From a virus, in IMG/VR virus record IMGVR_UViG_3300031867_000495, positions 1-26,246 of that record: DNA of 26,246 nt; one strand, written 5' to 3'. The notes below the pieces were generated by a model. That model was not told the DNA's origin, did no database searches, and worked only from the letters and a program-made list of their open reading frames with translations. Made by a program: the position numbers and the translations under genes. Below, one piece after another: positions 23,030 to 24,201 of this stretch (position 1 is the first letter of the stretch; each line of letters starts with the position of its first letter).

Positions 23030-24201
23030 ATGATTAGAGGTTATATTCCTGGGTTCAGCCGGCCTGGTAGCGAAGTCCGCTATGGTGATGTTCAAGTTAT
23101 CATAGATGAAAAGAAAAAGATATGCCTTGTTATTGATGGCGGCTGTGGGAAAGGAACTACAAAACTTATCGCTTATTTAAAAAGAAGAAAGATTTTTAAA
23201 GTATACCTTGCAATAAGTCATGCACATTATGATCATATATATGGCATCCGTAAAATTATAAACGATAAAGACTTTACTGTTTTAGGTTTATATTGTTATG
23301 ATCCAGATAGTTTAACAAAGGGTTTAAGTAACAATAGAGGAAGCTAGGAAGTGCGGACTGATATTGCATCAATGAAAACTTTATTGTCTGAGGCTAGAAA
23401 TAAAAATATTAAAATTACATATTTAAAACATAATGATAAAGTTGTTCTTGGAAATATTAAATTTAAAGTTTTCCGGAAACAACCTAATCGCGTTGCTGAC
23501 AGCGATAAAAATGGATGGGACTATATTAATAATGGAAGTCTTTGCTTTTATTTTTATGAATTATATTATTGGACAAGTGGAGACGGACCGGAAAGTGCCT
23601 ACGAACTAATAAAATCTTTAGGTATTAAAGTAAAATTCTTTAAAATTCCTCATCATGGAAACAACTGCAATAATACGCAGGCGAAAGGTTTAAAACAGCT
23701 TGGCGCAATCTACTGTTGGTATAATGATCTTGAACCAACAGGAATTGGAACTACAGATTTCACACAATATGGCGCAAGAAGATGTAAAGAAAATGGCTTA
23801 ACTGTATTTGAAACGGTAGGAGACCTTAACTGGGTTGCTCAGAGCGGAAAGATGATTATTTACAAGAGTGGTAAGAAATATGCTTATGATGTACCATTCC
23901 AGCCTAAAACAACTTTGAAACAGCCTACTGCTGATATTATTAGAAATACTTTTATGAATAAATATGGTGCGGGAGACACAAGAACAAGTAATTTACTTGA
24001 TAAAGGTTTTTATCCTGCTTCCGCGCAAAATAAAATTAATTTAGTTATTAAAGTGGCAAAACAAATTATTAATGGACAGGTAAACTATGGTGCGGGAGAT
24101 GCAAGAATTTAGGCCCTAGACAAAAAGTATGGAAGTGGATATGGACAATTAATTCAAGATGAAATTAATTCTCTATTAAATGCCAAATCAAAAAAATGGT
24201 A
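23030..24201 (+). CDS. Metallo-beta-lactamase-fold hydrolase fused to two C-terminal CW_7 (Cpl-7-type) cell-wall-binding repeats (about 390 codons). In-frame TAGs at 23345-23347 and 24110-24112, with the stop at TAA 24199-24201
   Basis: MBL motifs LVIDGGCGKG, SHAHYDH (HxHxDH) and KIPHHG. The CW_7-like repeats are FMNKYGAGDTRTSNLLDKGFYPASAQNKINLV and INGQVNYGAGDARI[TAG]ALDKKYGSGYGQLIQDEINSLL. The second repeat is complete only if the TAG is translated. ORFs 23030..23347 and 23351..24112 are in phase. Confidence 0.7.

Follow-up and report, generated by a model that had tools for sequence, protein, structure and literature searches.

A Pce/ComEC-type metallo-beta-lactamase domain is a widespread phage lysin module and a candidate wall-polymer phosphodiesterase

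What might a metallo-beta-lactamase (MBL) domain do in the lysis cassette of a phage? Here we address this question for a gene carried by IMG/VR virus record IMGVR_UViG_3300031867_000495, analysed as one stretch of 26,246 nucleotides (nt), hereafter the window. The gene encodes a protein of 390 amino acids (aa) in which an MBL-fold domain is joined to two CW_7 wall-binding repeats, and it stands next to the gene for an endolysin. An earlier note, made from the letters of the window alone, had compared this protein to Pce, the pneumococcal phosphorylcholine esterase, and proposed a wall-polymer phosphodiesterase. We find that the MBL domain is a widespread, freely shuffled phage lysin module rather than an isolated fusion, and that it belongs to the Pce/ComEC sub-clade of the fold, with a motif II of the Pce type. 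We propose, with a probability of roughly 60%, that the protein is an accessory lysis enzyme which cuts phosphodiester bonds of wall anionic polymers in concert with the neighbouring endolysin.

The HxHxDH-bearing MBL domain and the two Cpl-7-type repeats that the earlier note had read from the letters are both borne out by profile searches and modelling. The Pfam family Lactamase_B (PF00753; cut-off 22.7 bits) matches the window protein at 25.3 bits and its homologues at 34-37 bits; the metal site, HAHYDH, is intact, and 45 family members show no substitution at residues D36, H64, H66, D68, H69, N167, D185, H208 and H209. An AlphaFold2 model, built from 45 homologues for a database protein that is 96% identical to the window protein (P0001), adopts an MBL fold (predicted local distance difference test, pLDDT, 96.3; predicted template modelling score, pTM, 0.92), and a fold search with this model, the check which had been suggested for a Pce/ComEC-like MBL, places it in the neighbourhood of those two proteins, with structural similarity to the ComEC nuclease domain and to Pce at sequence identities of 12-16%. 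The same neighbourhood is reached by a chain of homology, in which P0001 matches a cellular protein composed of a signal peptide, an MBL domain and choline-binding repeats (P0204; 29% identity, E 5e-17), and the MBL domain of that protein matches ComEC (E 1.3e-10) and CbpE/Pce (E 5e-7 to 1e-6). The HxHxDH, N-x-N-S, G-D and H-H-G blocks remain in register across the alignments of P0001, P0204 and Pce/ComEC. At motif II, Pce reads THTHSDH and ComEC reads HPDADH (the latter consistent with PMC8579336), and the window family is invariantly H-x-H-x-D-H. Among ready-made annotations, NCBIfam gave nothing above cut-off for the MBL-CW_7 protein and PHROGs returned 'tail protein' or unknown; some homologues bear a precomputed PF23023 label.

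The C-terminal 95 residues resemble the anchor of a known lysis protein. CW_7 (PF08230) is matched in two stretches at 31.3 bits, against a cut-off of 25, with the best stretch at aa 342-383; the model has five helices here (301-308, 315-324, 329-347, 356-367 and 371-382), and the profile of the 45 homologues aligns with the solved wall-binding module of the Cpl-7 endolysin from residues ~293-344 onward (PDB 5i8l, E 3.9e-14; 4cvd, E 4.2e-5). Whereas Cpl-7 carries three such repeats on a GH25 muramidase, the window protein carries two on an MBL domain. No hydrophobic N-terminus that could serve as a signal peptide was found in the MBL-CW_7 protein, and in the model the first strand of the MBL core starts from residue 2.

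Full-length homologues of ~390 aa, which are 45-96% identical, metagenomic and in no case named, make up over 170 clusters when grouped at 90% identity, a breadth that excludes a chance open reading frame (ORF). The close relatives keep the gene order of the window, and genes for gyrase/topoisomerase and ligase are present on their contigs as well. Members at 45-50% identity occur in a further four backbones, unrelated and read with the standard code, of which three have integrase or recombinase genes. In all five unrelated backbones the MBL gene lies directly upstream of a GH25 lysin. A holin is encoded just upstream of the MBL gene in three loci (L005, L012 and L014), the holin families being different (Phage_holin_6_1, r1t holin and SPP1 holin), and in L012, at the holin-MBL as well as the MBL-lysin junction, the stop codon of one gene overlaps the start codon of the next.

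Searching with a profile of the MBL domain only, against 1.84 billion representatives of clusters at 50% identity, extended this picture from neighbouring genes to fused domains. There were 1697 matches at E <=1e-3, and 69 at E <=1e-30, with the domain often at the N-terminus of proteins of 540-970 aa or internal in proteins of up to 2358 aa. When 50 non-fragment representatives from this search were scanned with Pfam, the catalytic partners were GH25 (14), Amidase_2 (14), CHAP (12), Glucosaminidase (9) and, with 4 each, NlpC/P60, Amidase_5, ELLD and Phage_lysozyme2. Wall-binding partners were Choline_bind_3 (21/50), PG_binding_1 (12/50) and CW_7 (10/50), PG_binding_3 and SH3 also being seen; no Competence or OB-fold partner occurred among the 50. 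Choline-binding repeats are present in relatives P0120 and P0130, and examples of the architectures are included in Table 1. Of 35 IMG/VR viral loci sampled independently, 31 have more than ~300 nt of downstream sequence, and every one of these 31 has GH25 or Amidase_2 beside the MBL domain on the same strand, fused in 20 loci and split in 11. Five loci (L023-L027) share the GH25-CHAP-SH3-SH3-holin order of the close relatives of the window and yet encode a single protein of ~1000 aa in which choline-binding repeats replace CW_7, from which both fusion or fission and the swapping of binding modules appear to occur among closely related phages.

More distant matches are cellular proteins with a signal peptide, in which the MBL domain is joined to many choline-binding repeats, in one case with NlpC/P60 as well and in another with a dockerin; the nearest cellular relatives have the architecture of Pce. 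GenBank phages yielded no close homologue, only MBL domains at 24-28% identity, in phage c-st and in phages of C. perfringens. In the C. perfringens phages the domain ends a tail-module ORF of 940 aa, for which GenBank holds a 'predicted hydrolase' of 354 aa; in the record of Clostridium phage phiCP13O (JF767208; L017 5162-7984) this is gp27, annotated at 354 aa in an open frame of 940 aa, and several other stretches of that record are without annotation. In C. botulinum phage c-st (AP008983; L018 2861-6304) a glucosaminidase-SH3 lysin, CST108, is followed directly by the MBL proteins CST107 and CST106, so that the lysin-MBL association is also seen in a cultured phage; CST108 is annotated as an amidase, and CST106 carries an Ig-like Big_5 domain. 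A genome scan also gave five contigs of rumen metagenome-assembled genomes (MAGs) labelled uncultured Erysipelotrichaceae or Firmicutes, most of which are 2-3 kb long and may be mis-binned phage DNA. The first contig of a rumen MAG, 'uncultured bacterium RUG14723' (L007; CADCKD010000001.1, 149,458 bp), carries the cassette and is probably a phage genome binned as bacterial.

Taken as a lysis enzyme, the MBL-CW_7 protein would be made late in infection, its two in-frame TAG codons requiring the recoded translation of the phage, and would be exported through the holin lesion in the same manner as the endolysin, since it has no signal peptide. The two CW_7 repeats are predicted to anchor it on peptidoglycan. 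Its MBL domain, with a binuclear metal centre, would then hydrolyse phosphodiester bonds in wall-attached anionic polymers, a chemistry that we infer from what is known of the sub-clade, in which just two members have been characterised and both perform it: Pce acts on the phosphocholine of teichoic acids (PMC4929436), and the C-terminal domain of ComEC cleaves DNA and bis(p-nitrophenyl) phosphate (bis-pNPP; PMC8579336). The target is probably such phosphodiester-linked wall polymers rather than peptidoglycan, because the partner domains all bind or cut the wall, the cellular relatives are Pce-like and motif II is of the Pce type; the MBL domain has no similarity to known peptidoglycan hydrolase families and is not expected to cleave peptidoglycan itself. 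Candidate bonds would be those of phosphoryl substituents such as phosphocholine, the teichoic-acid backbone, or the linkage of the polymer to N-acetylmuramic acid (MurNAc). Once the polymers were removed, the GH25 and CHAP domains would find the glycan strands and peptide stems bared, and the wall would collapse sooner, a benefit suggested by the finding that teichoic acids shield peptidoglycan and keep lysins from binding and cutting it (PMC5069495).

As far as computation goes, the reading as a Pce-like wall-polymer phosphodiesterase is thus supported by the fold sub-clade, motif II, the cassette and the wall-domain partners, and the parallel to Pce holds for the MBL fold, motif II and the presence of tethering repeats. 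It fails in other respects. Pce/CbpE of S. pneumoniae (PDB 2bib, 1wra) is a structural relative and not an orthologue, at ~12% identity; it is tethered by choline-binding repeats, whereas the CW_7 repeats of the window protein are of a peptidoglycan-binding type; it has a Sec signal of 25 aa (PMC4929436), which the window protein lacks and the distant cellular relatives possess in the form of signal sequences of their own; and it is an enzyme of the pneumococcal surface, while the window protein is part of a phage lysis cassette and elsewhere is fused to peptidoglycan hydrolases.

Several further considerations weigh against the proposed role. Phosphodiesterase activity is itself a prediction, the single best structural match in the fold search is ComEC, a nuclease, and the family profile, when compared with PDB sequences, found generic MBL matches only and did not reach Pce at E <=1, in keeping with the low identity just given. 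Since teichoic acid, like DNA, is a polyanionic polymer of phosphodiesters, the two are not told apart by the fold, nor by the basic isoelectric point of 9.4 (family median 8.8). Hydrolyses of non-phosphoryl kinds are catalysed by MBL folds as well. Weak MAG-bin labels are the sole clue to the host or to its wall chemistry. Moreover, for Pce, a housekeeping enzyme that is secreted by the Sec route and takes off no more than ~20% of phosphocholine residues (PMC4929436), a lytic role is not obvious.

These considerations give room to alternatives, the best placed of which retains the chemistry, as the removal of phosphoryl groups from teichoic acids, and changes its purpose. As a receptor-destroying enzyme, the protein would strip phage receptors from debris or neighbouring cells, and so act against loss of progeny or superinfection. 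Phages of Gram-positive hosts commonly use teichoic acids as receptors, the domain that ends the 940-aa tail-module ORF of C. perfringens phages would meet the cell surface at adsorption, and the trimming by Pce of accessible phosphocholine residues only would suit such a task. We nevertheless regard this use as rather unlikely, given that 20 of the 31 informative IMG/VR loci fuse the MBL domain with the only visible endolysin, which points to concerted action on one wall; the idea also overlaps with the lysis role proposed here.

The resemblance to ComEC raises a second alternative, that of a wall-tethered nuclease which degrades released host DNA or extracellular DNA at lysis and lets progeny disperse. 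The C-terminal MBL nuclease of ComEC/Rec2 (PDB 9ic4, 30bt, 9vc6) is similar in fold to the window domain, but its motif II is HxDxDH and its activity Mn-dependent (PMC8579336), whereas the second His is invariant in the window family, as in Pce. ComEC is a membrane DNA channel that degrades a DNA strand in transformation, and has an OB-fold and a Competence domain (PF03772) that Pfam does not find in the window protein. The fusion partners found all act on or bind the cell wall, no obvious role for a DNase exists between Amidase_2 and Glucosaminidase or at the end of a 940-aa tail ORF, and the architecture of the nearest cellular relatives is that of Pce. For these reasons a nuclease is, in our judgement, unlikely.

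A third alternative leaves the wall as the site of action and replaces the bond: the protein might hydrolyse a D-alanyl or O-acetyl ester, or an amide of peptidoglycan, and represent a new peptidoglycan-modifying or -cleaving domain. Esterases, lactonases, sulfatases and amidases are among the fold matches in the MBL superfamily, and identities of only 12-16% to Pce and ComEC would leave scope for a different reaction. The family also has invariant blocks of its own, R149-x-Q-P and YWTSGDG, and some members have weak matches to Polysacc_deac_1. These matches lie below the Pfam cut-off, both characterised members of the sub-clade are phosphodiesterases, and the domain is nearly always found beside a bona fide peptidoglycan hydrolase instead of replacing one, which leaves such a hydrolase quite improbable. 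A cytoplasmic anti-defence phosphodiesterase of cyclic nucleotides, of the Apyc1 type, is very improbable; Apyc1 was rejected as an identity for want of close structural similarity and of a stand-alone cytoplasmic form. Scarcely credible, finally, is a pseudogene or annotation artefact whose frame merely carries stop codons, as two interruptions under the standard code might suggest, given that these are TAG only, in a pattern which is window-wide and limited to late-type genes, that one TAG is common to the orthologues and the other is CAA there, that the catalytic residues are all intact, and that standard-code homologues are full length.

The two TAG codons bear on how the gene is to be read. 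The earlier note gave it as 23030-24201, correct for the start and the gene itself and one base short at its end: the ATG is at 23030, sense codons run up to 24199 and the TAA stop occupies 24200-24202 on the plus strand. It had also read across both in-frame TAGs without comment, where the standard bacterial code (table 11) splits the ORF into pieces of 105 aa and 253 aa. TAG is the sole internal stop in this gene and in the neighbouring lysin gene, and neither of the two TAGs hits a conserved position of the MBL-CW_7 protein. Reading TAG as sense joins ORF fragments throughout the window, giving on the minus strand proteins of 1756 aa (8 TAGs) and 877 aa (6 TAGs), and where a TAG of the window differs in orthologues (>=86% nucleotide identity) the relative always has CAA or CAG. 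Because TAG is the only internal stop, fragments merge window-wide and orthologues have glutamine codons, the reading of the MBL-CW_7 frame across its TAGs is justified on sequence grounds, and the window is probably TAG-recoded, with TAG read as Gln.

The distribution of the codon follows gene type. Genes with 1-8 in-frame TAGs each are structural-type, lysis and homing-endonuclease genes (6673-11943 -, 11956-14589 -, 14606-15346 -, 20972-21955 + and 24215-25918 +), and those free of TAG are the early-type genes at 15543-20866 and a Metallophos gene. Recoding of TAG to Gln (code 15) is known from gut phages, in which the recoded codons lie in late and lysis genes (bioRxiv 10.1101/2021.08.26.457843; PMC10607447). 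No suppressor tRNA(CUA) was found by tRNA scans of the 26-kb window or of seven related loci, these being partial genomes (related contigs are ~145-157 kb).

To what extent is this kind of enzyme new to phage lysis? No account of an MBL lysin domain came to light in the openly readable literature, the scope of the search, so that an earlier description in subscription journals is possible, and the endolysin surveys in that literature do not mention the domain. The window protein is therefore a predicted lysis enzyme with a catalytic module apparently undescribed in lysins. Endolysins are catalogued and engineered as peptidoglycan-cleaving plus binding domains, and MBL is absent from such lists. 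A bolder proposal, to which we give slightly less than even odds, is that the domain makes up an extra enzymatic class of lysin domain beyond glycosidases, lytic transglycosylases, amidases and endopeptidases: a Pce-like MBL phosphodiesterase or 'teichoicase' that would have to strip wall glycopolymers before or during the cutting of peptidoglycan, in phages whose Firmicutes hosts are rich in teichoic acids or decorated with choline.

In function, Lysin B of mycobacteriophages is the nearest analogue, a second lysis enzyme whose gene neighbours that of the peptidoglycan-cleaving endolysin and which cuts a non-peptidoglycan wall layer. Lysin B is a serine esterase on the mycolyl-arabinogalactan linkage, and in fold, substrate and host group it is unrelated to the window enzyme; if the proposal is true, the MBL lysins would be its Gram-positive counterpart, widespread in rumen and gut phages. 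They would likewise carry Pce-type chemistry beyond an enzyme of the pneumococcal surface, to a broad set of phage and clostridial wall enzymes, and could provide enzybiotics with a ready helper domain against growing, polymer-shielded cells, on which these may fail. If teichoic acids or their decorations are removed, it would become clear how phages cope, from inside the cell, with the polymers that shield peptidoglycan from lysins (PMC5069495). The closest known phage enzymes against teichoic acids are the tail-associated GDPD (glycerophosphodiester phosphodiesterase) domains of Gram-positive phages, for which a role beside peptidoglycan hydrolases, in breaking wall teichoic acids, has been proposed (PMC10194240). 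Those domains are of family PF03009, virion-borne and active at entry, whereas the window enzyme is a Lactamase_B protein in a lysis cassette.

The position of the gene directly upstream of an endolysin, as the earlier note had it, is confirmed, the lysin gene beginning 12 nt past the MBL stop (Table 1). Between the upstream gene and the MBL gene lies a hairpin with a folding energy of -24.7 kcal/mol (z = -8.3), as stable as which none of 200 shuffled sequences was; a consensus terminator scan missed it on account of its AT-rich stem. Because this strong hairpin with its U-tract divides the two genes, the MBL and lysin genes are suggested to form a transcription unit of their own. The ORF past the endolysin is a possible holin-like membrane protein. 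At the same place the close relative L001 (12888-13181) encodes a different, holin-like protein of 97 aa with several transmembrane segments (phrog_20258), and the membrane partner of the cassette thus appears to have been exchanged between the two.

Table 1. Features of the MBL-CW_7 gene and its surroundings in the window, and domain architectures of related proteins.
Feature	Position or protein	Strand	Remarks
Terminator-like hairpin with U-tract	22958..23015	+	Between the 141-aa upstream gene (stop 22951) and the MBL gene
Ribosome-binding site of the MBL gene, GAAGGGA	23017..23023	+	6 nt before ATG; from sequence
MBL-CW_7 gene	23030..24202	+	390 codons plus TAA; two in-frame TAG as sense
Pce/ComEC-clade MBL-fold catalytic domain, aa 1-292	23030..23905	+	Without signal peptide
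Motif II, H64-A-H66-Y-D68-H69 (metal ligands)	23219..23236	+	Pce type; from sequence; invariant in 45 homologues
In-frame TAG, codon 106	23345..23347	+	Variable loop; CAA in 96%-identical orthologues
N167 of invariant N-x-G-S-L block	23528..23530	+	Aligns with NNNS / NSNS of cellular Pce-like proteins and Pce
D185 of invariant YWTSGDG block	23582..23584	+	Predicted metal-bridging Asp, motif IV
H208-H209 of invariant PHHGN block	23651..23656	+	Motif V
CW_7 repeat 1, about aa 297-340	23918..24049	+	Pfam; profile alignment to 5i8l, 4cvd
CW_7 repeat 2, about aa 342-385	24053..24184	+	Pfam
In-frame TAG, codon 361	24110..24112	+	Inside CW_7 repeat 2; same TAG kept in L001-L004
Ribosome-binding site of the endolysin gene, AGGAGG	24203..24208	+	Directly past the MBL stop; from sequence
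Partner endolysin, GH25 muramidase + CHAP + 2x SH3_3	24215..25918	+	567 aa; TAGs at 24362-24364 and 25841-25843
ORF past the endolysin, runs off the window	25932..26246	+	N-terminal transmembrane segment and soluble part; 2 TAGs
Architecture MBL-CW_7-GH25-CHAP-SH3	P0121		Equals both window genes in one
Architecture MBL-ChBR-GH25-CHAP (ChBR, choline-binding repeats)
Architecture MBL-ChBR-Amidase_2-Glucosaminidase-PG_binding_1
Architecture Amidase_2-MBL-Glucosaminidase
Architecture MBL-ChBRx3			Pce-like form

Other genes near the cassette were also noted. Two genes upstream of the MBL gene lies the Metallophos gene (21967-22515, +; phrog_547, E 6e-40), which encodes a calcineurin-like phosphoesterase and is thus a second metallo-phosphoesterase near the lysis genes; its position is kept in relatives. 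A multi-transmembrane protein of family PF06541 (ABC_trans_CmpB) is encoded in the window at 2860-3441 (-) and in two further loci (L005 6592-7056; L015 420-914), and the occurrence of this family just upstream of the holin/MBL/lysin cassette in two unrelated phages hints at a lysis-related membrane role. The homing endonuclease gene (20972-21955, +), with GIY-YIG and I-HmuI NUMOD-like domains and 6 in-frame TAGs, is inserted between a gene of 100 aa and the Metallophos gene, and is not at that position in L001.

Further from the cassette, an 832-aa TAG-free protein (16061-18559, +) carries Major Vault Protein shoulder, Vault_3 and Band-7 (SPFH) domains, which are unusual for a phage, and is conserved in L001-L003. 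The two giant adjacent tail-fibre-like proteins, of 1756 aa (6673-11943, -) and 877 aa (11956-14589, -), start with the same N-terminal peptide, MAQISYGSITIVD, which suggests a shared attachment module on paralogous fibres. In two temperate phages that bear the cassette (L005 1-5901; L014 1-5430), a reverse transcriptase (RVT_1) adjoins a giant DUF6273 tail protein, a pair that looks like a diversity-generating retroelement acting on a receptor-binding protein.

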